A stretch of DNA of 64,000 nt from Schmidtea polychroa (lineage: Eukaryota). The stretch is from contig CM097887.1 in NCBI GenBank assembly GCA_044892525.1, positions 27,528,001 to 27,592,000 on the forward strand, given 5' to 3'. Made by a program: the position numbers and the translations under genes. The notes beneath the pieces are model-generated. The model made no database searches and had not been told where the DNA came from. It saw only the letters and a program-made list of their open reading frames with translations. Of this stretch, positions 7,666 to 57,291 are shown piece after piece. Position 1 is the stretch's first letter, and each line of letters opens with the position of its first letter.

Positions 7666-8489
7666 CTCTACGGCATAAGACAAATCATAAACACAGATTC
7701 GTCGATATAGAAAGTCATTCACGATTATGCAATAATAATAGAGACGCAAATCTATGGATAATCAGCGTAGTTAGATTAGGCAGGAGTGATTTAAACATTG
7801 TCCACATCATAGGATTTTCTGTACATGTGAGAGGTTTTTCTACTAGTAAAGATTTTTCCGTAAATCCAAAATCTTTTCCACGATCGTCAATTCAAGCATA
7901 AATTGTTCATGAGAAATATCATCTGCATGAGTGAGAAATCGCGATTGGAATATTTATCATTAACGTTGACTTATCCCAACAAATTCGATTAAACATTACA
8001 AATGCCATATGGTTGAGATTGTAGGACAAGTGATCTAACCGGTGGTAGATACCGATTCTGATTGAGCTCCACTACATACAAATAACGGTGAGGATTGAGC
8101 GCAGTGTGGATTTAAGGAAATAGCCAGTATGTGGGTTAATGGATAGCGTAGTACTATAGTCAAAGTAGATAACGAAAATGTTCTCAGTGACCAATGAGCT
8201 AAAAATTAACAGCAACACTGATAAGGAAATACACAAACATAGTACACCGATTTTAGATATGCCTACTATGAACTACATTCAATTAGAATTAATTAAAGTA
8301 AAAATATAAAATTTTCTTTATTTTATTTAGCTATCAATTAATTTAATTTGGCTTACTGAGGCAGATTTCCCACCCGCTAGATGTGATCATTACTATTATT
8401 TATATTCTGCCTACAAGTTCGTTTGAGATTACTTCGTGATATACTTGGGATCGTCAACAGTTCAATCTTCGTTTTCATTTTTGTAGAAC

Positions 8490-9191
8490 ATGACCACAAA
8501 TTCAACGACCAAGTCTCCAATCCAACCGTGCTATTCTTGTGCAGATAAAAATGCGACCATAAAAAAGTTTCAATCGCAAATCGCCTGGAGGGTGCCTGGT
8601 TTACCCCGGCGCAAGGAAAGGAAATTCAGAAAAATTATTTCGAAACGAACACTGTCGCGATAGTTTGATCGAGGAAAGCCGATCTCAGAGGTTGTTGATC
8701 AAGGAGCAATCGGAGGCGTTACAAAGTATACATCCAGGAGACGGTGATGAAGAAGATTGTAAACATTCCAATATTTGAAGAAGACAATGTTTTTCCCATT
8801 CACCATCATGCATAGATTCACAGGGAAGTCCTGTCAAGGATGCATAGAGGTCGATCTCTCGCCTACCACCTCCGAAGTTGTATTTACGGGCACTAGTAGG
8901 GTGAATCCCAAGACTACCCAACCACCTAGTGTACCCAGTTCTTCGGTACATTAGCAGCCCAAACGCCGGCAATTATCGCGAGCCAAGCGCAAGAAAAAGC
9001 AGAAAGAGTGCATCATGGAAAAGGAAAGCAAGCGAAAAGCGAGTGCTATCGAGGCGTTACCAATGACGTCATCTAATGCTGTCAAGCAATATCGGGTCAT
9101 CACCGCCACTGGCGTGACATGGGAGGAAAATTCGTCCGAGCTGTTTGATTTGGAAGCTTTGTTCGCTGAAGTAGCAGCCGAAAGACAATGA
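8490..9191 (+). pseudogene. Unknown CxxC/coiled-coil ORF (cassette ORF B, copy 1), with stops and frameshifts
   Basis: QPCYSCADKNA...EHCRDSLIEESRSQRLLIKEQSEAL...FDLEALFAE aligns by eye with the ORF at 45820-46572. Confidence 0.7.
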
Positions 9192-9726
9192 GAATGTCTT
9201 CCACGAGATCATATTTCTCTTAGTACAAACTTTATGATTCAACTCTCTCATGTCTTGCTTTAGTTATTGGTAATGTATCTGTTCCCTTATTGTAATGATA
9301 ATAAACGTTGTTCCGTGTGAGATTAGTTTTAGTCGTAATAAATTATCGGATTAGATTTCCAATATTAATGATGATATATGTTGTTTTTTGACATTTGCTG
9401 ATATGCAGTGGGGTGTTCTGAAATATGGGGAAAATAAGACCCTTCGCATTGAGAACATATGAGGAAAGTGAGACGTAAGTCCTTCAATCTGCCGTCAGTG
9501 GAAGTAAGCCGAGGAACAAGGAAGGAGTAGTCCTAAGGCAAGGGCTCACCTTTTCCCTAAAATCTCGCCGTCATAATACAGTACCAACATGAAGAAATTC
9601 ATGGGTATCATGCCGTTGGAACAATCATTTGGAGTACTGTTTAGGTTCGGCAAATCTACGTGAGAAATATAAATATAGAGTCTAGACCAATATGAAAGTT
9701 AGTGTCGACCTGGTAGCGCGCCAACA

Positions 9727-10229
9727 TAGTTGAAGATTTACAAATGAAGTTTCTACCAATGAATGTTATCCGAAATTGAAAATTAAGACGATTTCGCTAT
9801 GAAATTGAAAAATAAAAGATGAAAATGCCTGCTGAGGTGGTTGTTTATATAGTTTTTTTATGTTCAGAACCAACCAATCATGGTCGACTGGTATGTAATT
9901 TTGTTGTATTTATTTTTGGGTATTTTTATTTTTCAAATAAATTATTCTAATTGGTTTAAATTATTTTTACTTTTCCTTAATTAATTTTAATTTTTATTAT
10001 ATTTTTAATTTCTTGGTCACTTTCGTCCGCCATCTTTTCTGTTTTAGTTCTCTTTTTAGCGACTATTTTGTTTTAATTCTCTTATCATATGTTTCTTATG
10101 CAACTTTTTGTGACTTTCTCATTTTATTACTTTAGTTTTTACTTAATTTCCCCATGTTATGTTTTTATTTTGTTTTATTATTATTTTAAATAACTTTGCT
10201 TTTTATTTACTATGTTCCTACTCTTAGCC
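9727..10229 (-). mobile_element. LTR U3-like promoter block (A-rich tract, TGATTGG, TATATAAA) running into the gap
   Basis: On the minus strand: ...GGCTAAGAG, an A-rich tract, then CATGATTGG...CTATATAAAC. Same layout as the blocks at 40560-41088 (-) and 44172-44720 (+). Confidence 0.6.
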
Positions 10230-25485: not shown

Positions 25486-26577
25486 ATGTCTGAAGAAATA
25501 TTAAATAAATTTATAAGTGATATTAATCCAAATAGAAGTTTTCCAACTTATCAATTACCAAGTTATTTTTACAATAAAGAAGGAGTAAATACAGCATATA
25601 TTAAAATCGATAGTGACGTGTTTAAGTGTTATAAACAATTCTATAACACACATCATCCATTCACTCGCTACGTTGTCGGACAGGAAGAAGAAGGTGATAG
25701 CGGATATAACCATATCCAAATGTATTGGGAGGTAAATACACCATGCATTCAAATTAAGTTACTAATGGAATGATGATGTATTTTCAGATTTACAACAATA
25801 TGTCTGTTTATGCCTTTAGGACAAAGACTCTTATTCCATTTGTCCGAGGTGTCCCCGGGACTGAGAGAGCGGCCGCAATCGCATACGCAACTAAGGTCGA
25901 TACAAGAGTCGCTGGAGGAATCTCAGTAAATATTGGCAAACCAAGTAAATATATGGCTCCTAATTCTGTAGACCATTTTAAAGCTGCTTTACATGCTCCT
26001 ACAATGAAAGATTCCCTTGATATATTAATGAAACATGAAGCATTTCATTATACAACTAAAAGAAAAACAATCATAGAAACATTTGTTAATAAATTTGGCT
26101 TACCAACTACACCAAACTTCGCAGATAATTTTTTAATTGAAAAAATAAATGTTTATGATTGGAAATTTCACGTATTTGTCGATGAGTCAGGCATTTTATT
26201 ATTATTTATTATTTGCTTTGTCACATTTTCAAAACCCAGTGCACTGCAAACATGTACAGATGTTAAATAGAGTTAATAGTGATGTGGAACAATGTGACGG
26301 AGTTGTATTTGATGATTTATATTTTAATAAATATAAAGTTGAAGAATTTCAGGCTTTAGTCGATTGTGCCTATGAAAATGTTATTAATATAAAGTATTCT
26401 GTTGCAGTTTTGCCTAAAGGTTTACCACGGATATTTAGTATAAATGATATTGATTTATTTTACCCCGAATCAATGACATCTAGTATTTTAGAAGCAGTTA
26501 AATGTAGAATAAAAATACATAATTTTCATGGACCTATATTTAAAAAATATAAATCTGAACAAGTATTATTTATATAA
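25486..26577 (+). pseudogene. CRESS-DNA-virus-type Rep (HUH endonuclease plus SF3 helicase), frameshifted
   Basis: Motif II region RYVVGQEEEGDSGYNHIQMY, motif III AYATKVDTRV, disrupted Walker A (VDESG...), ALSHFQNP, Walker B DGVVFDDL, motif C LPKGLPRIFSIN. TATAAATA lies about 30 nt upstream of the ATG. Confidence 0.85.
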
Positions 26578-26735: not shown

Positions 26736-27650
26736 TTAATAAATGTTAGAATGTTTTATTTTATCAAAAAAATCATACTTTACATCATTTAATACATTAT
26801 AATCACTAAAAACATCTAAATTACTTCTAAATTCATAAGCTTTTTCAACAACAATATATAAACTTCGATTCTTCAAGGCCTGTTCGTGTTCACTAGCATA
26901 TTTCCAAATAGGATGATTATTCGAAATAATACATGGGCAATAAGATGAAGAAGCTTTAGACTCACCTTTACGAGAAACACGCAAAAATATATTACCTTCG
27001 CTCACAAGTTTAAGTAAGTTATCATTTTTAAAATCACAATATATTTCTTCACCAATAATTATTTCTTTACCAACACAATCATCAAAACAAAATTCACTTT
27101 GAGTTTGAGCACCAGTAAAAAATCCATGATTCAATTTTCCACAACAAATAGCAGTAAATAATGTTTTGCCACCATTGCTAGCACCTTCTAGAATAATTGT
27201 CTTTGTCTTTCCGGCTTTAGAACCCAATATTGTAAATATCCCAATAAGACGACGAATGTATTCTTTATTTTCAGGAGTGGGGGGTCGCGGGGGGGCCTGT
27301 AACATGGGTTCCTTCTGCAAACATTATGGCAATAATATTTTATTTAAAATTTTAATGCATTTGTAAGATATTAAATTACAATTTTTTTGTTACACATTGC
27401 GTAGCGTTTTTATTTGTAATTTTGCATTATTTATAATTCTCAGTAATTTTAATGAAATATCGAAAAAGATAATGTTGTGAAACAATTACAATAAAAATGT
27501 AAGTGAAATCCAAATATCATTTCACGTGAAAAATACATGAAAACTACTGCATCGTTTATACATTGCGCATCATTTTTGCAGAACCGATTATGGACACAAA
27601 ATGAGTTTTTGATGGATTTACAGAGGAATGTTTTTATATTTTTGGTTAAT
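26736..27650 (-). pseudogene. Parvovirus-NS1/papillomavirus-E1-type SF3 helicase with an upstream HUH-like motif
   Basis: Open frame 26736-27320 has Walker A (ILEGASNGGKT), Walker B (IIIGEE), motif C (CIISNN) and the Arg finger (LKNR). Broken upstream frames contain GFHLHFYCNC at about 27483-27511. Confidence 0.85.
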
Positions 27651-34889: not shown

Positions 34890-35163
34890 TGTTGGGTTTT
34901 TATTTTTAAGTCTCTGACTTCTCGTGCTCTTATTCAACCAAATAAATCGAAATCCAACACAGAATAATTTTATTCAATTTCAAATAAATTAAAACTTGTC
35001 ACTATTTGCACCTTTTGGCTCTCTGAATTCAACACAGAAATCGATACTTTTATTACTTTTTATTACAATATTACAATTTCTTTGTACAATTTTCCGCTCG
35101 ATAAGGGGCGAATACCTTTTTTTGTACGAGTCTTACCTTTTTTTGAATTACAATATTTTAACA
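34890..35163 (-). mobile_element. Deleted LTR fragment (same family as 51685-52333)
   Basis: Shares TGTTG.GTTTTTATTT, TTGTCACTATTTGCACCTTT and CCTTTT..TGTACGAGTCT with the 51.7-kb copy. Confidence 0.7.
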
Positions 35164-37628
35164 TTAATCTAAAAATCATAAAAATGCAGAGTTATATTTA
35201 TTGAATGAGAAAAAAATAAAAACCGTAACTTTGGGTATTTATGGTTGGTAAAAAGAGAAAAGTCAAACAGAATGAATTTTTTTAAGTTGAAAGACCATTA
35301 TCACAGAGACTATATTTAAATATTTCCATCGGCTGCTCATTACCAAAGTCTCTATATGAATCCTGAAAATGTTCTTTCCAACCTATAACATTCAGAAAAC
35401 CTTGAATAAGCATAAATTTCAGAATACAAAAATTGATCCTCAAATAAATCTTGTTAACTAGAAGCTCTTAGATCGTCATCAACAGTACTTCAAATTTTAA
35501 CTACAAAGACCCCTAAAGACATAATCTCCAATATTTTATTTAGATACATTAAATTGCGATCCTATTAAATGGAACTTGAATCGATTATCATTAAATCCAG
35601 AAATGAAAAGATAGGAATATAATTCGTGGACAAAAGTGCTACAGTCTTTAGGCTACCACTATTAATGATGAAAGGATATGTATTGATATATTTGTTAATT
35701 ACTATTTTAAGTCAATTCTTAATTGTAGAAATAAAATTTAATCTAATAATATTTTGTGTATAAATTATAATAACATTTTAATGATAATATTTCAACATTG
35801 TTAATGATTATAATTTTATTATATTTAAACATGAAAAATCAATAAATTGGATTGGATTTTTAATGAAATTAACTAACTACTGTAGATTGTGATGTAATAT
35901 TTTGTGTGCTACATTATTTATTACTAATGTAATTTATTGAAATTTTATTTTATCAAATATAATATCAAAATTATAATGGTTATATTAAACGTGTAAAAAT
36001 ATTATTATTATAATAAACTAAAGGACGTTGTATTAAAGTGGTATCGATAAAAAATTCTTTTTCGTGGATATGACGCGTCAATTGAATAAAAATGTCTATA
36101 ATAATTGACATAATAATAAAAATAAATAAAAAGCACATAGGTGCATGAAGTATGATAGATAGTTTAGATATAAATACTAACTGGTTTTTCAATGAGATCA
36201 GAACCAGCAATTTCTGCGTCTAAGAAGAATTTCAAAATAGTTTACCTATTTAACTAGAGCATATAAAACTTCGAGCTCGGAATCGCATTGAATATATATT
36301 CAAACTTTTCAAATATTACAATATAAGAATAAATTAATCAATTATGTAATCTCCGTCGTTGTTTACATTTTGCTCCCACCTCTCAACCAATGTGTTGATT
36401 GTTATTTGTCCACTGGACTTCAGCTAGAAGAATCCAAATGTTGTGTTCAAGATCGGAGATGTCATGACTAAACTAAGAGTTTGGGGAGTCATCAGAATCT
36501 GACTGTTTAAAATGACCTTGGTTGTTGAGTCATGGAACACGGTTTCCTATTGCGTTTGTGATATCGTGACACTGGGGATTATTGGAAGTAGACTTAATAA
36601 GAAACTTGAATCTATTATCATATTTATTATCAAATCTATTATCTCAGTCGTTCCTCCTTTCACATCACCTAGGTCCATATTGGACCAGGAATCTACCGGA
36701 ATAACAGCAAATGACAGTTAAATAACAGTTTCAGTCTGACTCTCTGCTATGAAGATAAATATAAAGATAAATCACCAAGATTTATAAAATTTCATCTTCT
36801 CTAGTGGCCCCATGCGTTTTAACAGTCCCTTCACTTTTAACAGACAAAAACCGCAAGAAGTTACACACGAAACATAAGTTAAGGAGCATTGAAATAAAGA
36901 ACATCGACGAAAAAATACATACAAGAGCAGAAAACACCACAGTATCCATCCGATCCAAGCAGGGTAGAAAAGAAAATAATTCTAAATAATTAAAACAAAT
37001 AAATGAAGACTTTCAAAAAAATTTATTTGAATTCTATAGCTCAGCAAATTTTCCGGACGATTTAATCGAATTTAATCTAGCAGTATCAACTCCGGTTCAA
37101 ACTTTGAAACTAAGTGAAATTTTGGTTTATTTTGTATTTGTAATAATTTTTCTATGTTAACGAAATTTGTGAATGATATTAAGTTATATTAGTACTTTCC
37201 TTTCCTATTTAAATAAAATCATATTTTTGAGTTTAAATGTTAATTTTTATAAATATGGTGGAATTGAGACCTGCATTTTTCAGAGGTCAGAGAGTACGTC
37301 ACGTCTTCCTATCTAGCGAACCAAAGTGGGGTTAAATCACCCAGTTGCTGATCTCATCGGAGCTCTTTCAGGAGACTACATGCGATCAGCGGGTCTAGGA
37401 CATTAGTACCTTCATCATTTATCCCCCAGCTTATTATCCCCTCCAAATATATTGATTGAATATATTGATAACGCAGCACTAAATAACGATGATGATTGGC
37501 TGCAGGGTGATTCTCGATGCTTAAATTAAAATATTATTGTTATATATAGTCCTAGTTTATTCAACAAGATATTTTGTCCCCCTATGGTACTGGTCTTACT
37601 CAACACGTCGCAAGGGTACTGGTCACCC

Positions 37629-38069: not shown

Positions 38070-38782
38070 GTGTAAATATGTTATTATGAAATAAGAAAAT
38101 TTCTTCTAGTAGGCATGATCATATGGAGGCGATGTTAGTTTTAAAGACATCTACAAATTATTGGTCTATCCGAAAGAAACTGAAATTGTCACGGATATGC
38201 GGATTCGAGTATAAAGACATAATGTTATGCTTAAATTACGTCTTAAAAACCGATACCACGATGCCAAAAGACTTGTTTTTATGAGTTGAGTAAAAGTTTC
38301 TAGAGTCAGGCAGTTTGCAAGAGGGATTGCAATTAGTAGAAATGGAGAAAACTCTAGACTTCATTAAAATGAGTACGAAATTGTAACAATGTCTTGTTAG
38401 GTCATTTTAATGTAGACTTATTAATATTTTTAATCAATCTATTTTAAAACTACAAGAAACTCAGAGTCTTCACAAAACCACAATTCGATGACGAATGGTT
38501 GTACTGAAAATACCTTTTTGTTTTGATGATCTATATTTTATTTGAAGTAGAGTAGAAGAGTTTTTAAGTCTAATAGACTGCGCTTATGAGAATGTTATTA
38601 ATATTAAGTATTCAATTGCTGTAATACCTAAAGGTTTACCTAGAATAATTTGTGTTAATGATGTCGATATGTTTTACCCAGAGTCGATTACTCCTGTTAT
38701 AATGGATTCTATTAAGAGACGTTTGAAAATACATCGTAAAAAGACAGTTCCCGGATTCCGACATTCCTTCAACTTCAGCTAG
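38070..38782 (+). pseudogene. CRESS-type Rep, copy 2 (decayed, Walker A region deleted)
   Basis: KYVIMK..RHDHMEA (motif II), LNYVLKTDT (motif III), FDDLYF...VEEFLSLIDCAYENVINIKYSIAVIPKGLPRIICVND. Clearly homologous to 25486-26577. Confidence 0.8.
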
Positions 38783-39631
38783 TTCGAAATATCGGAAAAT
38801 TGTATCAAAACCTTCTTCTAATGAAATTACTGAATCCAATTTAAATGAAGCCCATGAAATATAAGTGCTCTAGATTCTCCATCCCAAAACAAATATTTTT
38901 CATTTTTATCTACACTTTGTTGTCTTCCAATTCCGTGAGTAATCATGCAGCAAGACGATCTGTGCCCTATCGATACAAGTATCAACAGTTCCAGGCGTCC
39001 TCCTGGCTAATCTTATCACCACATATTATTAAAAATCAAATTAAAGTATAATTATTGCGAAAAATTAAAATTTATAAATATGAATTTAGATTGATTGAAA
39101 TCAGATAGTATCCACTCATTCTCGTCATCACAATTTTATTCTACCGTACCGCTACCTTATGGCAATTATGTTCTTTTCGGTTACCTTCCCTAAAGCTATT
39201 TCCACCAAAATCATATTCTCGGAATTAAAATTTCCATCTTCCCTAACTAACCATATCCTAAATCAATCGATCCTCACATTTCAATGTCAGATTCTCCATC
39301 ATCTAGTTGTCCGATTATTTCTCAATCATATTTTCTGATTCCCTGCCGACAGAATAGTCGATTCATATTCAATCATCTTCATCGCAATCGAGGCGATTCC
39401 TACCTCTACATCATCGCTATTCTTCACCTCATTTCTTCTCATGCTATCACTAGATTTCCCGAACGACTTGGAATATAAATTTATCAAAATCTTCTTCAGT
39501 TTATTTCAAATCAAATGCTGACAAGGCCAATCGACACACTTTCTTCAGTTTAATATCATGAAATTTTCTCCGATCTCGGCATTTCGGATTCTAGTCACTC
39601 ATCAAATGTATGAATATTAAATGATTGTTAT

Positions 39632-41088
39632 TGTTAAATAAATAGTTCAGTCAAAAGAAAAGAGAATGTTAATAAATTTTTAATTTTTATCTGAAGGAAG
39701 ACATTTATGCGCAAAAAAGAAGTATTGATGGAGATCATGCGCCTTTTAAGCATCTTTATCAAAAGAGGAACTAGATTAAGAAATATTGCACAGCGTACAG
39801 ATAAAGCCAAGTGGACATTGTATGCTACACTAATAGAGAAGTATAATGTCAAACAGACTTTAGAACCAGGTTCTAGCTCAGATACTATCACTCTAGGCCG
39901 ATTGGTTTCTGCATTTCCAGAAGTCACGGCTTTGCTTTTGAAGAAATCTGGTTCTAGGTTTGGTCATCTAACTACAACTCTACCAACATGTTTGCAATTT
40001 ACTGCTGCTGCAAGTCTTCTACCTAAAGAGACTCTTAACGGCCACGATTATCATCATGATATTTGTGTTCAATTAGATGCTTTGGTGAATGGAGCAAAAT
40101 CGAACGTAGAAAAGGTCTCTCAATACTGGAACATAGCACATAGGTCTGTTCTCTTCAGTGATGAAAAGAGAAAGGAAATATTGGCAAATTTACTTGACAA
40201 CGAGGACTTTCTCTTGTTTGTTCCTCCTAGTCAAGAGGTAGTTGCTTCTGTTTCAAAGAGGAGAAGCAGCGCACTCAGTCCAACAAAACCTCCTCCTTCT
40301 AAAAAGCCTTATGCACCAACTTCTAGTAGAGGTAAGTAATTGTTAGAGTTCTTTATTAAACAATAAAAAAACTATATATAATTTTTTTTTTGTATAATAA
40401 CATTTACTATAATATAATATAATGCATAAAAAATAAACACAAATAAAATTCTATATATTCAAATGTTTCTTGATCAGCTAAATCGTCAGTGGAGTCCGCA
40501 ATAAGGTAAGTGTTAACTAGTGAAATTCTTGACCTGGTTGATAGTTACACTGAGTAGTTACGATCTTAAAATGCGTTGGCTAAATTGAAAATTTAAAAAC
40601 TGAGTGAATTAGTCGCTCTATTTCTTTATATACTGGATTCTATCCAATCAGAATCCAGTAAGGTTGTAATATCGTGTTTTTCCTTGTTTTTTCTCTTTTT
40701 TCTTTTTCTTCCGTTTTCTTATTCCTTTTAGTGATTTAATTAATAAATAATTTTAATATTCTTATTTTTTTTCTTTTGTTGGCTTTTGAGGGATCTTTCT
40801 TGTGATTTTATGCTTTACTTATTTTTTTTAATTATTATTTATATTTTTTGGTGTTGTTATTATCATTTTAATTTCTCGTTATTTTTCCTTTTATAGCTAT
40901 TATTTTTCTATTATTTTCTTTCTTAGGGGTATTTGCTTAAGGTTTTTTGTCTTTTATTGATTTTTCTATTATTTGTATTTTTGATTATCAGTTCTCTCAT
41001 CTCACTCTTTACTAATTCCCAACTGAACTGAATTCCTATTTAGTTACGTTATATAGTAATTTGGACTCACTAAGTTATCAGCCCAACA
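39632..41088 (-). mobile_element. Solo-LTR-like cassette (TG...CA ends, 4-bp TSD) carrying a viral nucleocapsid-like ORF
   Basis: TGTT at 39632 and CCCAACA ending at 41088, with TTAT on both flanks (39628-31 and 41089-92). The minus strand starts TGTTGGGCTG, then an A-rich tract, CTGATTGGA and TATATAAAG. Confidence 0.75.
39707..40339 (+). CDS. Phlebovirus/tenuivirus (Phenuiviridae)-type nucleocapsid-like protein
   Basis: IFIKRGTR..., LIEKYNVK, DTITLGRLVSAFP, LPTCLQFTAAASLL and AHRSVLFSDEKRKEIL run collinear with remembered phlebovirus N motifs (ALTRGNK, LINKYKLK, DELTLSRVAAA, AVNSNFISHEKRREFL). Open 210-aa frame with AATAAA at 40362. Confidence 0.78.
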   Translation: MRKKEVLMEIMRLLSIFIKRGTRLRNIAQRTDKAKWTLYATLIEKYNVKQTLEPGSSSDTITLGRLVSAFPEVTALLLKKSGSRFGHLTTTLPTCLQFTAAASLLPKETLNGHDYHHDICVQLDALVNGAKSNVEKVSQYWNIAHRSVLFSDEKRKEILANLLDNEDFLLFVPPSQEVVASVSKRRSSALSPTKPPPSKKPYAPTSSRGK

Positions 41089-43129: not shown

Positions 43130-43820
43130 AATATTAATTATTATAATTACTAATTGTGAGATGGCGTATTCATTGGATACAGACGCTTTCATACGAGCGT
43201 TATTAAGATTTATAGGAAGAGGAAATCCGTCAATGATCTTATCGGACAACGGAAAGAATTTGGTTAGGGAACTGGAGAAGTTCAGGAGTTGGTTATAGAT
43301 TCTTATAAAATGAGTAAAGTACTTTTAGAAGATCAAATTAGATGGGTAAATTAAATCCACCTTCGGCATTGCGCTTTGGAGGGATTTTCGTATCATTGAT
43401 AAAATCAGCAAAGGCTATGAAAATAATTATCGAAGGGGCTGACATTCCGGGCGAAGACCTGAATACGGTTTTAATAAAAGTAGAAGAGTTGTTGAATTCT
43501 CGCCCATTGACAGAATAGTGCAGTGACGGTAAAGAAGACATTGCACCAACTCCAAATGATTTTTTTATCAAAATGACCTGGACTAGAGCGAACAGAAAAT
43601 ATCACGCATAATGAAGGAATAGATTACAGAAGAAGATGGAAAAGAATTTTGCAAATACTGAACCATTTTTGAAAAAGGTGGAAGAAAGAAGTCAAACTAG
43701 CCGAGGTGTTTGGGTCTTAGAATCAAATATTCCAGAGGGTAGATGGCCGTTAGCAGAATTAAGGAAGTGATTCCAGGTAGTGATGGAAAGATCCGAGTCG
43801 TTAAGATTAAATGCCAAAGT
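43130..43820 (+). pseudogene. BEL/Pao LTR-retrotransposon integrase core plus DUF5641-like tail
   Basis: SLDTDAFIRALLRFIGRGNP..ILSDNG, NPPSA..FGG, EELLNSRPLT, PTPNDF, RIKEVIPGSDGKIRVVK. Several stops and frameshifts. Confidence 0.9.
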
Positions 43821-43989
43821 AAAGAGAAAACTGTATTGTATTTGAAATATTTTATTTTTGCTAAATAATAAAGCTTTGCAAATGAATTGAATTGCCTTTG
43901 CTTAAGCACATTTTAAACATCCAGTTCATATTAAACATTTACAAGTGTTGAATATTATTACTGCAGATATAGATAAATGTGACTGATTC

Positions 43990-44171
43990 GAGTGAACAGA
44001 AGAAAGAAAAAGCATTGGAACTTTAATTTCAATCAAATCATCTACAGAAAACTGTATTCTAATAACATGATCGTTGAATAATTGTTCATAATCCAAATCT
44101 CCAACAGAAACTTTATTTTCCAATTTCCAAATCTGGATAGACGATAAAGTTGCAGCACATAACCAATATAT
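43990..44171 (-). pseudogene. RACK1: RACK1-like pseudogene, 3' part
   Basis: YWLCAATLSSIQIWKLENKVSVGDL matches RACK1 [25 protein letters not shown]. Removing 44172-47058 restores FIFSPKIYWLC in frame. Confidence 0.85.
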
Positions 44172-47058
44172 TGTTGGGCTGAATTGAATGTGGGAAAAGT
44201 CGAAAAAATAAAAATGAATAAGTAAAAATTCAGTATTGAATAAACTAAGTAAAAAATAAACCCTAAAGAGAGTTGAAGGAATTACTAAGAAAAATTTAAA
44301 CAAATGATAGAAAAAAAATAAAACAGTTAAAAAATAAAAATCACGAGAAACAGAAACAAGTATAAAGGAACAAAATACCAACCATGGCCAACAGACAAAA
44401 AGGAAAAATAATTAAATAAGATAGGAATTAAGAGAATAAAATCTAAATACGAAAAACATAAAGTAATGACATAAAATATTAACCAAGGCGAAAGAAAATT
44501 AGAAACAGGCAATTACACAGAATTATTAACAAAAATCCACAAAAAATACACAGAAATATAGGAAATAAATAAATAAATTAATTAACCAAATAAAATAAAT
44601 AACCCAAGAAAAACATTTAAAAACATAGGAAATAAGAAAAATAACCAAAATACAACATAACTCAGTCCTGATTGGACAAAATATACTATATAAGGTAGAC
44701 ACTAGGTCATTCACTTAACTTCTTAAAAATCCTTACAGGTAAAATTTTTATTCATTTTGAACTGCTTAAAAATCTTTACAGGAATCAAACTCTTACAGCG
44801 ACTATTAAGAACTCTACAAACTCATCACAGGAACCACATAGGACTATTAGGAACTCTATCAAACGTTTACAGAGAAATCGAATCTATCACCGAACTGAGA
44901 ATTATTTGAACCGTAATCACTTAAAGATCATTAACAGATTTTGTCCGATTATCATTGAAAGGAACAAGTAAATGATTGATATTTTTTCTTAATCGGTTTA
45001 TGAATTGGTATTAATAATTATTGTTATTGTAATATAACTTTCATTAGACAAAATGAATTTTCTCTTCACCGGAACTGGTGACGATGCCGTTTGGGAACTC
45101 CGAGTATGATGGCCAGGAACCGAAAGTACAAGAACAATGAATTAGTAATGTTGCAATTTTCGAGAATATGCGATTTGGTTTTAGAACCAAGATGGTAATA
45201 ATAGTATGAGATCAAATGTATGAAAAATGTGATTGAGAGCGATTGAATCATTCTACATTGAATAAACACTAAATAAACCTGAGAGCCACATTGTCTATTC
45301 CAATAATCACACGATTTTGACATAATCAAATTGGCACCAGGCGAGACTAGTTCTGGGTATATCTCGCTAATAAATTCAAACGGTTGTTTACCACATAAAA
45401 TGCAATGCCTAAGGTGATATCCGGTAGAACAGATCACAAATAAGACGACGAAATAAATAGTACACATTGATTTAATTAATAAGATGCTAATAGTATTATA
45501 TTTACAATTTTCTTCATAAATATGCATTTCAGTCGAAAGATTTTGGTCAACAGTAGAATTTCACAGCCAACGCGCATCACGTGAACCATAATTATTAAAA
45601 TATAGTTTTGGTAAAAATCAAGTTATAATAATTTTCTTAAACAAAAATAGTTGATCAAATCTCACCCTCAATGATTAAATTACTCGCGACGACCTCCAAT
45701 ATAAGGGTGATAGGGTAAGTAAAATATGTTAATGTTGTCTACGCGGTAGAAAGAGGGGAATTGTTAACAGAAACGTCTCATAACATTTTGTAACGAACTT
45801 TTTCGTAATCGATAAATCAATTTGCCGTCAAAAGGGCCGAAACCATGCTTTTCTTGTGCAGACAAAAATGCAGATATCAGAAAACTGCATGAATATATCG
45901 GGGTTCTGAAGAAACGTATTGAGACGCTCGAACACATGTGGTTCTCCCCGCCACATATGAAATAGGAAAAAACCAAGATCCTACGACTGGAGCACTGCAG
46001 AGACAGTCTCCTCGAAGAAAGCCGTTGTCAGAGGTTGACAATCAAGGCTCAATCGGAAGCACTACACCAGGTGTATTCTGAATCAGAAATAAGCAGAAGA
46101 GTACGAGAGTATCGATCAAAGATGGGACGAACGTGTTCCCCTTCCATCACCGGAACGACGAACAACAATTGCCTCTAACCAGTTGCACTGGCCACGGCTT
46201 TGGCTTTTCTCTTATTATCGAACCGATCTTGTCCGGATCAGCGAAGGGACAAAGCTCAGTTCCACCAACCGTCAAAGAAGCCGCTCCTATTTCCGTACTA
46301 AGTCATCCAATTGAACCCACCAAAGCAACGTCGAAGAAAAAAAGCGTCCCTCTCGGGCGGAACGAAATCAGAAACGCCGAGATGAGATTGCCGCTCTAGA
46401 AGCATCCCTATTTGCCGCCCAGGCACTAAGCGCACAAGTCCCGAAAGAAAAGATAACAACACCCAAAGAAACTTACCGAATCGTTTCATCCAGGACACTC
46501 AATCTTACGGAAGACGCTCAGCTACAGGTAGATATAGATGCCTTGTTAGCCGAAAAAGAAATGTCCTTGTAAGTGACAAGTGGAAGACACCTTCAATATT
46601 ACTCATGATTCGGTGAACATCATGCCGAAATCCGAATGAATTTTTGTAACCATTAGTTATTAAATATCTGCTTGAATAATTTTCTATCTTATGCAATAAA
46701 TGTTCTTAATGTCTGTGTTTGTTGTTTATTAGTTTGTCTGAGTTAGATTTTGACTTATCCCGTAGTATATCAATATTGAGTAAGTACAGTCATCCCCTTG
46801 GACCAGGGTCGTACTATCTTTTTTGAATAACCACCAATGAGGTAAGTCCTTCTATGGCACTCCTGAACCCGTACAGTAAACCTTACCGGGAGTAGTCCTA
46901 ACACAGGTGCTCACCTGCTGGTAAGTTCCGACCTGCGTGTGCATTACCAACGTGACACATCGTCACGGGCACTCGCATGGGAGATTATTGTCAAATTATG
47001 AAGGTTGCTTAGGGAACCAAATCTGAGCATATAAATATCTTTCCCTAAGTAACCAACA
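44172..47058 (+). mobile_element. 2.9-kb solo-LTR-like cassette (TGTTGG...CCAACA, TSD ATAT) inserted in the RACK1 pseudogene
   Basis: 6-bp terminal inverted repeat; ATAT at 44168-71 and 47059-62; excising it rejoins the RACK1 frame. Starts TGTTGGGCTG, then an A-rich tract, CTGATTGGA and TATATAAG. Confidence 0.9.
45820..46572 (+). pseudogene. Unknown CxxC/coiled-coil ORF (cassette ORF B, copy 2)
   Basis: KPCFSCADKNADI...EHCRDSLLEESRCQRLTIKAQSEAL...VDIDALLAEKEMSL*. Homologous to 8490-9191. Confidence 0.7.
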
Positions 47059-47062
47059 ATAT

Positions 47063-47293
47063 TTTTGGCGAAAAGATAAATTTGTTAATAATCTCACACA
47101 TTTCTAACGCGCATAAATGTCTTCCTTCAGATAAATTCCATAGCATTAAAGTTCCGTCCCATGATCCAGCCAATGTAAATTGACCATCATTTGACATAAC
47201 AAAATCACTTTCAAAGTCCTCCCAAATAATCATAGATTTATTCCTTGATGCAGAAATAAGACTGTTTGGATAGATGTTGGTTGCAATCTTTGG
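47063..47293 (-). pseudogene. RACK1: RACK1-like pseudogene, 5' part with internal deletions
   Basis: [22 protein letters not shown] (WD1), [21 protein letters not shown] (WD2), joined directly to [27 protein letters not shown] (WD5/6). Confidence 0.85.
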
Positions 47294-47571
47294 TTTTGAA
47301 GCAGCCTATTGATTTTCAGTGTTTCTGGTTTCCATGAAATAAACGCCAAAGTACCCTGATAGTCATATAATGCATAGCAACCTTCTTTACCATATGTTTC
47401 GATCATGTGTAATTTGAATGTTTCATAAGGAGTAGCTAATTCCCCAGTTTCTAATTGAATAATTCTATCCTTCTGTTTGTTGAGTCCAAAGATTACATAT
47501 TGAAGTCTGTGTTGTAATTTAATGTAATTAAGATATTCTTCAACTGAAGGATCACATTTAACACCTTTCAA
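47294..47571 (-). pseudogene. ADF/cofilin-like pseudogene fused to the RACK1 fragment
   Basis: GVKCDPSVEEYLNYIKLQHRLQYVIFGL...YETF...EGCYALYDY...LAFISWKPE..., ending in AASK. This is the typical ADF-H pattern. Confidence 0.8.
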
Positions 47572-47789
47572 GGCATGTCCATCCGAGGGCGTAGTTTATT
47601 CCGGTGGAATCATCAAAGATCAAGAAGATCAGAAACATTAAATACTAAATTGTTCAAATCTGTAGATTATTCTATTCGAACCTTCATTGAACTGAGTCCT
47701 TGGCAAAACAAGGTCTTTAATTTTGGTTTTAATAAAAGTTCAGTCAGTTAAATTAAGTTTTGTTATTTATATTATTTCTCAAAAAGTTA

Positions 47790-48486: not shown

Positions 48487-48768
48487 TGTGTCCAAAATGA
48501 TATTTTATTTTTATTTTACCTTGAAAATCTTATAAACTCATCAATTTTGTTTGAATTTTAAAAAAACGTTTTAAAATGAGTCCGCTATATACACTATCTC
48601 TTCGGGGGGACCGGCGCTTCGATTATTGTACATACATTGTATTTAAATCATACCCATCGGTGTACAAGCGGTCCCCGAGTAAGACATGTCGTGTACCGGC
48701 CCGTGAGCACGCGGGCCGATAATGTTGTTGCGGAGTGACTCACCGGTGGACATGCGGTCTTTAACGTG
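47990..48768 (+). mobile_element. piggyBac 3' fragment (transposase C-terminus, CRD and right TIR)
   Basis: MLSTKHDDSM...KPAIVIDYNKGNGFIDLSDQMAAY, then RKQCRL..ARKSAKKINAICEKC...DCF..NH. GC-rich TIR ends ...ACGTG followed by TTAA at 48769-72. An (AT)n run lies at 48449-48483. Confidence 0.9.
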
Positions 48769-48953
48769 TTAATATCAAGTATTCAGTTGCTGTAATACCT
48801 AAAGGTTTACCTAGAATAATTTGTGTTAATGATATCGATATGTTTTACCCAGAATCGATTACTCCTGTTATAATGGATTCTATTAAGAGACGTTTGAAAA
48901 TACATCGTAAAAAGACAGTTCCCGGATTCCGACATTCCTTCAACTTCAGCTAG
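48769..48953 (+). pseudogene. CRESS-type Rep, copy 3 (3' end only)
   Basis: Nearly identical to 38598-38782 (NIKYSVAVIPKGLPRIICVNDIDMFYPES...). It begins exactly at the piggyBac TTAA. Confidence 0.9.
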
Positions 48954-50215
48954 TTCGAAATATCGGAATATTACTTGATTTTATATTATTAACTTTTATT
49001 ATTATAAATGTTTTTATTAATATTAATTTTTATTTATTATTATAATTGTTGTTAATATTTTTTTTATTAATTTATTATTATTTATTTTTATTGCTATTAT
49101 TTTTTTTATTTATTTATTAATATTTATTTTTATTTATTTTTTTAGTTGTATTAATTTTTATTTATTATTATCATTTTTATTTTTTTATTAAATTTTATTT
49201 ATTATTTTTTTAGTTATATTAATTTTTATTTATTATTATCATTGTTATTTTTTTATTAATTTATTATTTATTTTTATTAATTTTTATTAGTAGTAGTAAA
49301 TACGTGTGAACCCATATACGTAGAACGAGTGAATATGGTATTTTTCCATACCCCTGCCATGAAATTTTTATTTGGTTAATGAAATTATTATTATTATTAA
49401 TATTATTTCTAGTATTTTTATTTAGTGTTATTAATGAAGTTGACTTTTTGTTGAAATAAGGAAATAAATGGATATATCAATTTCTTTAAATTGTTACCTT
49501 TTACTTGACCGTAAGAGATTACTGTTGTGATAATTCTGTCTTGCTATTTCGTGAATTAAGCAAGTTCATTAATTGCTCGTTACATTTTGTCACAATAAGT
49601 TTTATTTAATATTATATATATTCTACTGACAAATTATAAGTAAAGTTTGTTATTTCCAAATATTTTATTTAAATTCAACATTTGAAATTATTTGTAATTA
49701 AAAAAAATTTGAAAACTAAAAAGATGAAAACAAGTTTTGGTTAAAAAGCTTTAAATTTTGAAACCAGCAATAATAATGGATTTCATCCTCGCCTTGTAAA
49801 GGAAAAAGTTACATCATTGCTAACTCATTATCTACTGAAATAAGACGTTAGTTTACCCTTAACCAAACGAAAATTTTCTCGGATTTATAAAGTTTAATTG
49901 CTTGATTTTCGTTGGTCCAATCTGATTGGTCCCCTGCTTTCGGGTTAAATAACCTGTTTGTTGTTTTATTACTTATTAATCTTGACTTTGAATTGTTGAT
50001 CTGTTGTTTTAATTGAGTAATACACAAAAAATTCAAATCACCAAATTTAAAAATTATTTTGACAAATGTAATAATGAAATTGATTTTATTATTAATTGCA
50101 GCGCCACTTAGCTTTATTAATTTTTTATTTAATTTATTAAATGATAATAAAAATTATTTTAAATTTTGAGATAAAATTCATACTAAATTAACAGTTATAA
50201 CACAAATTAACGTAC

Positions 50216-51684: not shown

Positions 51685-52333
51685 TGTTGAGTTTTTATTT
51701 GTAAGTCGGTCCTTTCTCTGACTCCTCGTGTTCTTATTTTACCAAATCAATGAAAACTAAACACAAAATAACTTTATTTGATTTTTATCACAATTACAAT
51801 TTGTCACTATTTGCACCTTTCTCTCAATTCAAATTTATTCGTTAAGGTAAAAAACCCAAGGGGCAATTACCTTTTCTTGTACGAGTCTAGCTTCTTTATA
51901 ATTCACGAATTTCCTCTTTTGACTTGTCCTTGCTGAATTTTCTGTTTAGCTTTTCCTTTTTCTCTTCGACCAAATGGCGGCTTGCTCATTTCTAAGCTCT
52001 CCTTTTATACTGTGTCTAAGAGGCCAATTATTTAGCAAATTCAAATTAAGTGTTTCCCCGGGCACCCTAAGTAAATTTTGAAAGGTTTGACAATTATTTT
52101 AATTTGTTTACCCTGAAATTATAACTCGAATTATTATTACCTTATCTGGTGTCTCGGGTCTCACTGCGCATCGGGTTTTCTTCAGTGCTCAGGTTTCCCA
52201 TGGGCTCGGGCTTTCCATTGGCTCGGGCTTTCCATTACAGATTAATTAATTTTAATTAATTTGTTTTTCCTTATTAACTTTTTCTATGATCAACCTATTA
52301 CATTTTTATTATGCTTTCTAACCTCGTCTAACA
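51685..52333 (-). mobile_element. Solo LTR (about 650 bp)
   Basis: The minus strand reads TGTTAG...TATAAAA...AATAAA...CTCAACA, with internal short repeats (GGAAAGCCCGAGCC). No matching TSD. Related copy at 34890-35163. Confidence 0.75.
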
Positions 52334-53977
52334 ATTTGGCATTCAACCATACCCGATACCCCCGTTCAATATTGATTTTTAATTTTCATTAAATTTTAAT
52401 TAATTTTGTACTTATATTGATTTTACCAATTTTTGTTCTGCTTTCTGGTACCATGTGAAATTTATTTTGTTTTTGCTCTAACCCCAACACTACTTTATAT
52501 TCAAAATAGTTATACCTTCACAATGTATATGGGCGTTTTGGCACTAGGAATTTTGGCGATGGATTTTAAAATATATATATACTAGGTTATTTTTCTTTTA
52601 TTATAACTTTTAACGAGTTCTTTTATTATAAGAATCGCCCTTCAAAATAGTGATGCAAAAAGGCACTCTGGTCTACATATCATTGTAGTTGATAAAATTG
52701 TTAACTCACGGAATCAGCGAATTATTGAAAATACACTTATCCAGAACTGAAAATTTCCTTGTCCTTAGCGAGCTTATATCAATATTTTCTTTTCTATATC
52801 TCCATAATGGAATTCATCACACAAATCATATACTAAACTCTCAAATTAAGCCTCAGCAAAAAGATGTCATTCTATCTTTTCTCCAATAATTTTTAAATCT
52901 GAAAGTTCAAACATATACTCGCACTGCCAACTCTAATGATCTCAACTACCTAATTTATGAGATCCATATTTTATTCACAACTTTCAATACCATGCAATTA
53001 ATAGTTCTAAATGAATTCAGTCACTAATCTCTGGTATTTCTAGAAAGCCAAGTTTTTAAAACTATTTATCTAATTAAAGTAATGTTTGAGAATTATTTGA
53101 CCAAATTCATTGTAAAATTCACACTATTTACCATTTTTATCAAGGAAATATTTTTGGGGTTTCCGAAGAATTCTGTAGGATTATAACTAAAAAGTTGATT
53201 TCCAGCGTTTTTAATTTAATAATAAATTAGAGTTTCAAATTGTCTTGACAGTCACCGAAACCGAGCCTGTAAAGTCTTGTGTATTTTTAAGATGTAGGTG
53301 CCCAATAGATATGTTGGTCTCAGCGCTTGAATCTCTTTAAACACACATACGCTTATGGACGCGTACTCTATATAAGTTATATTTTTACCCAAACGACCAG
53401 CAAAAGTAAATGTGGTAAATGTGTATCAACAATTTTTACTGTGACGAATTATTCACTTATTTACTTAATGAAATAATTGTGTATAATTGCGCCGAAACAG
53501 TGTGAGCCTATAAAATGAAAAATAACCTTTTTTCAAATATATGAGTATGAAAAAAAAGCTAGAGATTCTTCTAAAAGTTATTGCAAATGTTAAGGAAAAA
53601 TCATTCCTATATCTAGGTGGAAGAATAATTATTTTGAAAGAATGACTTACCCATGTCTTAAAGCTAGTTTGCATTAAATGATCTACAAAAAGTAACTTAA
53701 CTATTCTAAAACAGGGATACATAAAGCACACCTCTTGAGATAGATCCATTTTAACCTCCTGGTCCACGCTATATTTAGAGAATGTGCCATTTACTTGTCA
53801 CAGATGTAAACATTTCATTCATTATTAATATGGGTGAAACTAACAGGATGGATCGAATTATAATTCCTTGTAGCATCTGGATAAGAGGGAAGAAATTGTA
53901 TTTCCCTAACAGCCACGGTGACAGTAAATTTAAAAATTGTTTTCAACAGGATATTGTTAAAGTGCCGAAAATTACAT

Positions 53978-54530
53978 TGTTGGAGTTATTAAACCACCAA
54001 AATTAATTATATTTAGAATAAAAGGAAGGAGAGATGTGAAAGTCTGGTCAGGGAGAATCGATAGTGTAAATAAATAAAAAGAGAACAAAGGTTCGAGAAG
54101 TTGTATTATTATAGGTGAAAAGCCCAAAAATGGGAATGGTGAGAAATCGATTCGAATGGAAATCTGGAAAATTGATCATATATGGAGTAAGTAGCGAGAA
54201 ATAATATGGTGATAACGGAATTTGCCAGGAAGAGTGCGAAAAGGTGTATAATAGCTAAATAACAAGAAAACGAAATAGATTAATTAATTAATTAGCGAGT
54301 AGAAAGAAATCCCGAGCTGGGTAAACAAATGGAAAAGCAAACAAAAGGAAATTTTGGGACCCATTATCTTGTTACAATGATTAAAGGGACGGTTTATTAA
54401 TTATTTGATTAATATACCAAATTTGGATGTCGAATAAATGCGCCACGAACGCATTGAGTGATTTTTGATTGGTCAACTACAAATTCAGTTATATCAGTCA
54501 ATTGATTTAGACAGACAATGCTAGATCATT
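53978..54530 (+). mobile_element. LTR-like repeat (family also at 59500-62860)
   Basis: Starts TGTTGG, A-rich, with TGATTGG at about 54467. 54010-54390 aligns with the reverse complement of the sequence flanking the intact hAT. The right boundary is uncertain. Confidence 0.7.
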
Positions 54531-54700: not shown

Positions 54701-56419
54701 TTACATCTTGTTAATGCGCTTGTAATTGGCCATGAAGCGCTCAAACGCCTCGTTGACTCGGTCGATCATCTTGCACAAGTGATCGATTGGTTTCGAATCC
54801 ATTGACCCGGTTAAAATGTAATAATTCGGATGCTGCTGAACGAAACCGTCGATTTTCTGCAATCGAAACTTTTTAATGGCCTCGACCATGCGATGCAGCT
54901 TCTCGAACCCAGCGGAATCGGTAACCGGGAAACATTCCCAGAAATGCCTAAACAGTTCCGATGAAATCCGGTACAGCAATTTGATATCACGTATCATTTC
55001 CGGCGGGAGCTTCCCAGCGTTCCGACCCTGCTGAATACAGGACGACACAGCGACATCGGCATCGGAAAACAGATGCCCAATATCGGTCAACACGTCCGTT
55101 GCCACTGACGACGACATTAAATTGACGAGCGGCCGGCACTGGGTGTTAGTGAGATTCTGTTTCAACAATGCCAATCTGCGCAATTGTTCCTCCTGGAACT
55201 GCTTCATCCGTTTTCTGTCGGCTGTTGATTGGCCGGTCACATTCGCAACGTTGCTTGATGAGATTCGGTTGATATATTGACTGACTTTGTCAGTATTGAA
55301 TTTCACACCTTCCATCCGATCGAATGTCGATTTCTCCAACACGAATCGCTCTTCTTCACTGTACATTTCCGATGAAGAATCGATCAATCGCCGTTTCTCA
55401 TTCCCGCCATCCAAATCTACAGAATCCGATTCGTTGGCTCGTTTTGATGTATTTTTGGATTTCATCGTTTTTAATATTAGGAAACTCTGGCGATTGAATC
55501 GTCTTAAAAGTTCTTCAGAACTCGAACTTTTCTGTGTGTCAGAATTAATCGGTTTCCCCGTGCTTTCCTGAATACAGAACTCACCGATATCTTCTGTTTT
55601 ATCCTGGATTAGTGTCAAGGATTCCTTTTTCAATCGCTGTGCTTCTTTTTCAATTTGTTGAATATCATAATATGCACAACTGCCAAATTTATCATTGGAA
55701 AGATCGCTTTTAAATCTGTGGAAATAATGAGATTGAAAGAATTTATTCCAAAATTCCTCTTCAGACATTTCATTGGGAACCAGTTGAGTATGTTTTTGTT
55801 TAACTGCCGGATAAACTGCGAATATATCTTCAACCATTTGCCGACTGAGATTACATTGTGATTTACCGTCTTTTTGAGGAGGAGTTGCTAACAACCACGA
55901 CGGAATGCCACGATTGTACATGCTATACTCATTTACTGATGATTGTTGACTAATGTTAGACTCAGCACGTTGCCAAAATTCTTCTTTGCATACATACTTA
56001 TTAGTGACTAATTCACGATATAAATCTAAGATCTGAGGGTTATTTTCACAAAGTTTTCTTTTATTTTCTAATTCAGATTGAGCTTTTTCTTTAAATCTTG
56101 GAATGAAATATTGGAGAGAAATTTTAACGCTATTTCGATCACTTACTTGCTTGGATCTTCCGTCAGGATGAATGAAATGAAAAGTAAAGGAAGAACCAGA
56201 GTGCATAAGTAATTGCAACTGAACTTTATCTTTATCATCTGGGCTAATTCTTTGTGCACGAATATTCTTATAATGCTCACTAATTTTAAACACATCTGAT
56301 GTATTTGTCATCCAAGCTAATCGCTCTGTCATTAAATATAATTTTCCTTCTGTCTTTTTATAACTAACATGATCAATTAATTTAACAATATCTTCAGTAG
56401 ATTTTGAAACATTTGACAT
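54701..56419 (-). CDS. GTF2H1: General transcription factor IIH subunit 1 (p62/Tfb1), intronless, 572 aa
   Basis: N-terminal PH domain (KKTEGKLYLMTERLAW...QRISPDDKDKVQLQLLMH), BSD1 (LYRELV..EEFW), BSD2 (IFAVYPAVKQKH..VP..MSEEEFWNKFFQSHYFHR) and C-terminal ELFRHFWECFP. Confidence 0.95.
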   Translation of the reverse strand: MSNVSKSTEDIVKLIDHVSYKKTEGKLYLMTERLAWMTNTSDVFKISEHYKNIRAQRISPDDKDKVQLQLLMHSGSSFTFHFIHPDGRSKQVSDRNSVKISLQYFIPRFKEKAQSELENKRKLCENNPQILDLYRELVTNKYVCKEEFWQRAESNISQQSSVNEYSMYNRGIPSWLLATPPQKDGKSQCNLSRQMVEDIFAVYPAVKQKHTQLVPNEMSEEEFWNKFFQSHYFHRFKSDLSNDKFGSCAYYDIQQIEKEAQRLKKESLTLIQDKTEDIGEFCIQESTGKPINSDTQKSSSSEELLRRFNRQSFLILKTMKSKNTSKRANESDSVDLDGGNEKRRLIDSSSEMYSEEERFVLEKSTFDRMEGVKFNTDKVSQYINRISSSNVANVTGQSTADRKRMKQFQEEQLRRLALLKQNLTNTQCRPLVNLMSSSVATDVLTDIGHLFSDADVAVSSCIQQGRNAGKLPPEMIRDIKLLYRISSELFRHFWECFPVTDSAGFEKLHRMVEAIKKFRLQKIDGFVQQHPNYYILTGSMDSKPIDHLCKMIDRVNEAFERFMANYKRINKM

Positions 56420-57291
56420 AACTTGATGTATTTATAATAAATCTTACTTAATAATATTTATATATCCTTATATAATTAGTAAATAAATAAATTAACAACT
56501 TTTAAATACGGTATTTCGATTATTCTAATATTAAAACAATAAAATAAAATTATAAAATTAATGTCATTTATCAGCATTCATTTCTTTATTTCTACATCGC
56601 TAGCTAAAGAAAATTACATATTTTAAATAAATTATTGACGAATATGGAATATTAATAGTACAATTATTGTAAAAATTAAAATTTGAAAATAATGAAAGTG
56701 AATAACATTAAGGCTTTGTTGGAAATACGTCAACACAGAAATTTTCCACATCAATCTTCGAAACAAATTGACTCCACTTTTTGTATTGACACATAAAATC
56801 TTTACCACTATACATTCGTCGCAAGTGATGTTGCTCCTGTACATAGGTGGTCGACCTTCAGCGGTACAAATTTTCAGCATCATTCAAGACAATAAAGACA
56901 AAATTCGCCCGGTGTTCTACTTCTGAAAGTTTAAATAGATACATTGATAGAAATATGGGTGGTGCTGCAGTTGGGGAGGATAAATTGCGAAATTGGAAAA
57001 GTAAATCTTAGAAATTCGCTATGTAATCAATTCTGAGATTAATTATGTACCGTATCTTTTGTGTGCTCATTGTTTATTTATTGAACTTGCCTGTTGGGTT
57101 GCGCACACAGACACGAGGCTATATAGATTTTTTTGATTTTGTTTTCATTTTTTGAAATGGATTGTATTTTTGGATTTAATTAATTGAGTTTTCGGACTTT
57201 GATTAGAAGTTTGTTTCAAAAGGTTTATGTCGCGGATTTAAAAAAAATAAAGATTTTTTAAAACTTTCATTTTATTTTTGGTTTCATCATG

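Follow-up and report, generated by a model that had tools for sequence, protein, structure and literature searches.

Which kind of mobile element carries a protein-coding gene between TG...CA ends and has no gag or pol? This question is raised by the unit at positions 44172-47058 in a 64-kb stretch of DNA from Schmidtea polychroa, all 64,000 nucleotides of which are referred to here as the window. In this study, which is based on the window together with protein searches and published papers, we propose with a probability of roughly 0.6 that the unit is a long solo long terminal repeat (LTR) of a Ty3/gypsy-type element with an accessory gene of its own, which possibly encodes a nuclear regulator. 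The evidence that carries this proposal is the structure of the insertion, the coding constraint on its open reading frame (ORF) and the colinearity of its 3' part with that of a diverged sister copy.

Insertion of a single unit into a RACK1 pseudogene

The unit is a genuine single insertion, as had been claimed in a preliminary description of this DNA, which noted an ATAT target-site duplication and a split RACK1 sequence. Its boundaries and its target are:

44168..44171, + strand: left target-site duplication, ATAT
44172..44177, + strand: TGTTGG at the 5' end, which forms an arm of the 6-bp inverted repeat of the termini
47059..47062, + strand: right target-site duplication, ATAT
47063..47305, - strand: target RACK1 pseudogene, upstream part, matching up to residue 243
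44079..44168, - strand: target RACK1 pseudogene, downstream part, residues 246-275

The unit is 2.9 kb long and runs from TGTTGG to CCAACA, and among the 21 strict TGTTGG..CCAACA pairs that lie 300-6000 nt apart in the window it is the only one with an exact 4-nt flank repeat. Since both flanks match the same PDB chain, the target was one contiguous RACK1 pseudogene, which is now interrupted between residues 243 and 246. At the termini of the unit the inverted repeat is perfect over 6 bp, and 13 of the first 40 nt are identical; when the unit was compared with itself, no long inverted arm was found inside it, nor any direct terminal repeat. Its frames of at least 50 amino acids gave no Pfam match to gag, protease, reverse transcriptase or integrase, in agreement with the earlier statement that gag and pol are missing. 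In the flanking DNA at 47063-47595(-), a Cofilin fragment (PF00241) runs into the RACK1 pseudogene with internal deletions, forming a mosaic of two abundant mRNAs.

Internal organization of the unit

From its 5' to its 3' end the unit consists of an A-rich promoter with CCAAT and TATA boxes, a decayed ORF, an AATAAA signal with a GT-rich tract and a 340-nt end, and judged by these motifs it reads as a single transcription unit:

44172..44700, + strand: U3-like promoter block (57% A) that is colinear with 40592-41088(-); its boxes are a reverse CCAAT (44669) and a TATA (44687)
44717..44860, + strand: leader with short direct repeats spaced 42-43 nt; candidate splice donor near 44739
45066..45560, - strand: antisense frame without a stop over 164 codons; belongs to no known family
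45816..46572, + strand: decayed sense ORF with one in-frame stop (45963-45965) and at least two frame changes
46695..46745, + strand: AATAAA followed by a GT-rich tract, the putative poly(A) site; sister equivalent at 9300
46721..47058, + strand: U5-like end with terminus CCAACA; motifs GTAAGTCCTTC and GGAGTAGTCCTAA common to the sister

The sense ORF has a GC content of 47% in a window that is AT-rich (GC 29%), and its product would have two long helices, a CxxC motif, a basic patch and a hydrophobic-acidic C terminus. TATA-like boxes flank the ORF, one on each side (44687 and 47030). Within the 338-nt end the motif GTAAGT occurs three times (46780, 46842 and 46921; P 4e-5 at the window rate). 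An antisense frame as long as that at 45066-45560 has a chance expectation of 0.0003 in its ~850-nt span; its product is hydrophobic and cysteine-rich, and neither Pfam nor further protein searches gave a family match, nor did the ESM Atlas hold a usable one. This frame may represent either a second gene or a piece nested in the unit.

A sister copy and the block that abuts it

The sense ORF of 44172-47058 recurs elsewhere in the window at 8487-9191 (z 15.9), which bears out the earlier observation that it is shared with 8490-9191. Two features are found at this second locus:

8487..9726, + strand: sister copy whose ORF is the same but has more frame changes; AATAAA (9300), U5-like motifs and terminus CCAACA
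9727..10229, - strand: separate inverted promoter-like block with CCAAT at 9880 and TATA at 9851; its start lies inside the N gap 10230-10386

The likeness to the main copy continues beyond the ORF, as the 3' parts of both copies align with a z of 5.2 and none of 100 shuffles scored as high. The spacing is also similar: 123 nt in the main copy and 109 nt in the sister separate the stop from AATAAA, 363 and 426 nt separate AATAAA from the end, and the distance from GTAAGTCCTTC to GGAGTAGTCCTAA is 47 and 49 nt, respectively. In alignable blocks the two copies are ~65-70% alike, and because the ORF, the poly(A) signal and the terminal 340 nt are colinear in copies as diverged as these, their linkage is ancestral. 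Both the main copy and the sister are broken now.

In the preliminary description, the 8.5-10.2 kb region had been read as one unit with antisense cargo, and two pieces meeting at 9726 had been named as the finding that would speak against this. The alignment gives exactly these two pieces. The sister lies on the + strand and ends with CCAACA at 9726, the block 9727-10229 is a third, separate piece, and since a same-orientation sister here abuts a separate inverted block, the ORF is not antisense cargo.

Two further observations concern the upstream side of the sister. A pyrimidine tract at 8470-8492(+), with an AG three bases 5' of the sister ATG (8490), resembles a splice acceptor and suggests that the ORF was once expressed from a spliced leader. 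Just upstream, at 7182-7981, 800 bp lie between TGTTGG and CCAACA, with flank repeats that do not match.

Coding constraint and relatives of the sense ORF

In a 30-codon ungapped core, the ORFs of the main copy and the sister differ at 9, 5 and 15 sites in codon positions 1, 2 and 3, respectively (p 0.016). Six codon blocks gave 24, 12 and 46 differences of 78 at the three positions, though these blocks were picked by hand for protein likeness, a choice that favours a result of constraint. The codon-position patterns indicate that the sense ORF was under coding constraint.

When 1.84 billion proteins were searched with the N-terminal part of 95 residues, two matched (E 1e-5 and 3e-4), and a profile weighted to these two returned eight more, which brings the relatives to ten in a family without a name. 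Nine of the ten are fused to an unrelated host or hAT domain, different in each case and in one case below the Pfam cut-off, and none of the ten contains a gag, protease, reverse transcriptase or integrase domain. We read these relatives as gene models that have run into inserted copies, as a scattered mobile unit would give. Because of the coding constraint and the many insertion sites in the gene models of another genome, the ORF appears to be an accessory gene of the element and not captured host cargo.

For the 95-residue N-terminal part, AlphaFold predicts helices at residues 14-42 and 52-86 (predicted local distance difference test, pLDDT, 81.6; predicted template modelling score, pTM, 0.43). 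Foldseek comparison of this model with viral models gave no match at E <=0.001 (0/41), a profile search of the PDB returned coiled-coil noise only (best E 0.15) and the ESM Atlas held no usable match for P0002 residues 1-245. Among viral contigs the shared end motif had no match, and no relative of the ORF was present among 597 pattern matches in metagenomes; one metagenomic motif match (L001) is bacterial and was rejected as due to chance.

A probable solo LTR with a gene of its own

We suggest that an integrase inserted a full element into the RACK1 pseudogene, an event to which the observed 4-bp duplication and TG...CA ends can be ascribed, and that recombination between the two LTRs would then have removed gag-pol. 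The ORF would be located in an R-like region of ~2 kb, between the CCAAT/TATA promoter and the poly(A) signal, and the solo LTR alone could have expressed it. The unusual length of the LTR would be explained by the complete small transcription unit inside it. More speculatively, the protein might have been a nuclear regulator of element RNA, with its coiled coil, arginine-rich patch and leucine-rich tail, and the cluster of donor motifs that follows the poly(A) signal may let the U1 small nuclear ribonucleoprotein (snRNP) damp this signal and permit full-length RNA to be made.

At the level of motifs, the unit has what is expected of a solo LTR, namely a TGTNR start, a short inverted repeat, a 4-bp duplication and a promoter upstream of a poly(A) signal, and a nearby LTR-like unit, at 51685-52489, has an ordinary size and lacks an ORF. 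The reading of a very long, gene-bearing solo LTR had been one of two offered in the preliminary description, and it fits 44172-47058.

Several points weigh against this reading. In the 64-kb window, no copy was seen to have a partner LTR, and neither a primer-binding site nor a polypurine tract nor gag-pol was seen with any copy. We know of no precedent for an R region of ~2 kb, and one of this length complicates first-strand transfer and the bypass of the 5' poly(A) signal. Both copies also keep a second TATA-like box close to their 3' ends, which could point to a U3-borne layout instead. In the sister, a promoter block upstream of the ORF is not recognizable (z 0.9), the 5' end was not found in the window and the middle 850 nt of 44172-47058 have no counterpart (z 0.2). 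As regards the protein, only seven of the ten relatives directly match both window copies, and a function for the ORF found no support in Pfam, the ESM Atlas, the PDB or viral fold models. An arginine-rich stretch (5/10) and a leucine-rich export-like motif (4/10) are clear in the relatives only, and both patterns were written after the relatives had been inspected; the window copies retain basic patches and the hydrophobic-acidic tail.

Regulators of the Rev/Rex/Rec type combine an arginine-rich stretch with a leucine-rich export motif. The likeness of the ORF family to these proteins is at the motif level only and is seen in the relatives; the window copies keep only basic patches, and homology searches gave no match. 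In foamy virus, a splice donor in the LTR lies near and upstream of the poly(A) signal, and binding of U1 snRNP can suppress the signal (PMC3694450); in 44172-47058, by contrast, the conserved donor-like motif, which is known from its sequence alone, is located ~150 nt downstream.

A more specific version of the proposal is that a gypsy-type element keeps a Rev- or Tas-like regulator in the ~2-kb R region of its LTR. A short mRNA would be produced first, the protein would then favour full-length read-through or export, so that early and late phases would alternate as they do in complex retroviruses, and each solo LTR would be a source of the regulator. We consider this version tentative and rather unlikely. 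In its boldest form, related LTRs would also swap the content downstream of their start, one of them with an antisense bunyavirus nucleocapsid fragment.

If the proposal is true, the formation of solo LTRs, which normally strips an element of its genes, leaves a complete gene at every site. A coding-constrained family would in this way gain many genomic copies, which would explain the fusions to unrelated host genes made by gene predictors, and control by an accessory gene could be tested in an element of the Ty3/gypsy type.

Comparison with known LTRs

Solo LTRs of Ty3/gypsy elements share with the unit TGTNR...ACA ends, a short inverted repeat, a 4-bp duplication, a promoter followed by a poly(A) signal and the lack of gag-pol; they differ from it in that the unit is 2.9 kb long and its promoter is separated from its poly(A) signal by a protein-coding gene. 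The TGTTG of 44172-47058 fits the 5' pattern TGTNR given for Gypsy LTRs in PMC2836005. LTRs on the scale of 2.9 kb are known, because Ogre LTRs measure 1.9-6.5 kb and planarian Burro elements exceed 30 kb in total, with an internal region of up to 25 kb (PMC6431247, as far as its available sections go); the Burro sizes leave room for LTRs of roughly this length. Burro/GYPSM1 elements resemble our case in their probable host group, in the multi-kilobase LTRs that their sizes imply and in the accessory ORFs typical of them, although in the same sections these ORFs and domains are placed in the internal region and none is mentioned within an LTR; this comparison is one of organization. A literature search, which covered neither Repbase nor the original Burro paper with its supplements, where these LTRs may be described, turned up no account of an ORF within the LTR of a planarian element. 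The portions seen of PMC8532177, PMC11410931 and PMC13238120 contained nothing further on LTR structure. In a tapeworm, solo LTRs are reported to read through into adjacent sequence (PMC4558846). In the searches made, the sense ORF resembled no named family in sequence.

Alternative layouts and mechanisms

The second TATA-like box bears on an alternative in which the solo LTR is mostly U3, the ORF has an internal promoter and poly(A) site, and genomic RNA starts at the 3' box. The model for this is sag of mouse mammary tumour virus (MMTV), an entire ORF within the LTR that is located in the U3 part, 5' of the main start site. As in MMTV, the ORF would survive in a solo LTR; unlike sag, the ORF of 44172-47058 lies downstream of the main CCAAT/TATA block. 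Both copies keep the ATATAAATAT box close to the end, at 47030 in the main copy and at 9668 in the sister, with a CAAATC motif before it; the main copy has the box within a 14-bp hairpin (47003-47054), and no R region of 2 kb is needed. However, the box is only 28 nt from the terminus of the main copy, which leaves hardly any R and U5, and no poly(A) signal follows it. The sister lacks the hairpin, and the terminal regions fold no better than shuffled sequences (z -1.65 for the main copy and 0.77 for the sister). We regard this layout as improbable.

It is somewhat less probable still that the unit is a complete, non-autonomous DNA element without a larger parent, moved by a gypsy-like integrase that recognizes short ends, as in a Ginger-like mechanism. 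The TGT...ACA ends and the 4-bp duplication are common to Ginger1 and Ginger2/TDD, and relatives of the ORF are found only beside unrelated genes and never with gag-pol. Solo LTRs, however, are likewise expected beside unrelated genes, and according to PMC2836005 and PMC6839031 the terminal inverted repeats measure 40-270 bp in Ginger1, which uses CCGG or CCGT/ACGG targets, and 50-180 bp in Ginger2, compared with the 6 bp and the ATAT duplication found here. Membership of Ginger itself was rejected on account of the 6-bp repeat, the ATAT duplication and the lack of an integrase-like transposase, the last of which is expected of a non-autonomous copy. The second reading in the preliminary description, a long-armed Ginger-like element that had lost one arm, fails for the same reasons, the identity beyond the 6 bp being the 13/40 given above. 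In addition, neither copy looks as if it had lost an arm, because the two diverged copies have the same asymmetric 3' end, and a test for an inverted arm 5' of the ORF in the sister gave none (z -0.1). Helitron, Polinton and DIRS elements were rejected as well, because TG...CA ends combined with a 4-bp duplication are not known from them.

Related promoter blocks and the nucleocapsid-like ORF

The preliminary description had assigned one promoter architecture to 44172, 41088 and the region near 10229, with a looser version at 53978. The sequence TGTTGGGCT is present at 44172(+) and 41088(-), and TGATTGG followed by a TATA box occurs three times in the window only (44669+, 40650- and 9880-). 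The blocks at 44172 and 41088 are colinear over ~550 nt, with 350 identities, 136 mismatches and 81 gap columns, and their similarity exceeds two types of shuffle (z 6.8 and 7.2, 0/100 each). Shuffles and AT-rich controls were applied to the block comparisons because a sensitive run had scored the AT-rich tract 48975-49300 level with the 41088 block; in a self-BLAST of the window with word size 11, the promoter blocks had no matches to each other. The shared architecture therefore holds for 44172 and 41088, where more than base composition is shared. At 9727-10229 the boxes are in register with those of the 44172 block, but the position of TGTTGGGCT falls in the N gap and the scores (z 2.9 and 1.6) are within those of the AT-rich controls (1.7-3.2), so that a kinship of this block is marginal and at most possible. 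The blocks at 53978 (z 0.3 and 0.6) and 52489 (z 1.0 and 0.1) were rejected as relatives. The region 53978-54390(+) belongs to a separate repeat family, having a relative of its own at 62843-62645 and 59970-59763(-). This second copy, 62843-59763(-), is interrupted by a hAT element whose transposase frame is open over 639 codons, and AGTAGTGAG is found at each of the two junctions.

The features at the 41088 unit and the nearby LTR-like unit are:

40592..41088, - strand: related U3-like promoter block; candidate far ends 40341 or 39632
39695..40339, + strand: Tenuivirus/Phlebovirus nucleocapsid-like ORF, 5'-truncated, 214 codons, open; PF05733, E 1.2e-8
51685..52489, - strand: ORF-less LTR-like unit of 805 bp, flanks CAAC/CTAC; its 3' end has a 75% relative at 34890-35032

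The 41088 block probably marks the LTR start of a related family. With the end at 40341, the terminus is TGTTAG, the flanks are TAAT and TTAT and the result is an ORF-less LTR-like unit of 748 bp. The end at 39632 would give a unit of 1457 bp with an exact TTAT repeat, TGTT...AACA ends and ATTAAA plus a T-rich tract before the end. Exact flank repeats are found in 29 of the 3228 loose pairs of this kind in the window, and within 6 kb 41088 has two exact partners (37538 and 39632) and four with one mismatch. The nucleocapsid-like ORF, for which further protein searches gave no match beyond PF05733 and of which the window holds no second copy, adjoins the 41088 unit or lies inside it and is at most a candidate for cargo. 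Its predicted fold alone is poor (pLDDT 38).

These data bear on the idea of a cargo shuttle, in which an LTR-like promoter platform would acquire ORFs 3' of its start, the unnamed ORF at 44172 and the antisense bunyavirus nucleocapsid fragment at 41088. In its favour, the 44172/41088 homology covers both boxes and ~30 nt beyond the TATA-defined start and then diverges, the 39632 end has the features just listed and the antisense frame inside the main unit is unexplained. However, 39632 is one of several partners of 41088, and 40341 offers the better terminus and a length like that of the 805-bp unit. The nucleocapsid fragment has neither a second copy in the window nor a relative in the protein search, adjacency is to be expected where viral, transposon and host fragments are so closely packed, and the 8.5-10.2 kb case is refuted. 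We give this idea the same low standing as the Ginger-like mechanism. The preliminary statement that the cargo is sense at 44172 and antisense elsewhere holds for 44172, fails at 8.5-10.2 kb and at 39.6-41.1 kb depends on a chance-prone flank match. The only ORF shown to move with the family is the one shared by the main copy and the sister, and its orientation is the same in both, which leaves the general claim of a cargo-shuttling system unsupported. Least probable of all is a composite in which a short LTR received later nested insertions and the ORF came from an unrelated mobile piece, for although nesting is common in the window and the middle 850 nt are absent from the sister, the ORF, the poly(A) signal and the terminal 340 nt are colinear in both copies.

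Three minor observations belong to this region. Two GTAAGT motifs (40332 and 40506) lie 3' of the nucleocapsid-like ORF (two in 250 nt, P about 0.001), and splicing to two short exons could take place here. An exact 27-nt match between 39686-39712(+) and 47109-47135(-) (E 4e-6) links sequence just 5' of the nucleocapsid-like match with the RACK1 pseudogene, and suggests that host and viral sequence were joined by a template switch or else by a templated insertion of local origin. The pair 34890-37566 with an AGAT repeat was set aside as due to chance, its right part being unlike the 805-bp relative (z 0.6).

Other features of the window

The window is a mosaic in which Pfam recognized hAT and Tc1-type transposases, a parvovirus NS1 fragment, located at 26736-27323(-), and the nucleocapsid-like ORF described above. 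Rfam and tRNA scans of the window gave zero matches. Seven public sequencing runs contain all or part of the window (four of them at least half of its words; three studies), with no RNA run among those listed, and these shares were not counted as evidence. A weak BEL/Pao-like integrase remnant, with a score under the cut-off, is present at 43160-43830. Four kin fragments (26149-26577, 38522-38801, 43897-43983 and 48768-48972; one pair 97.5% identical) contain a single ORF with no Pfam match, which by eye we take to be like the Rep tail of a circular single-stranded DNA virus. Finally, amid transposon debris at 54701-56431(-), a TFIIH p62 (GTF2H1) frame of 576 codons is open and without introns.

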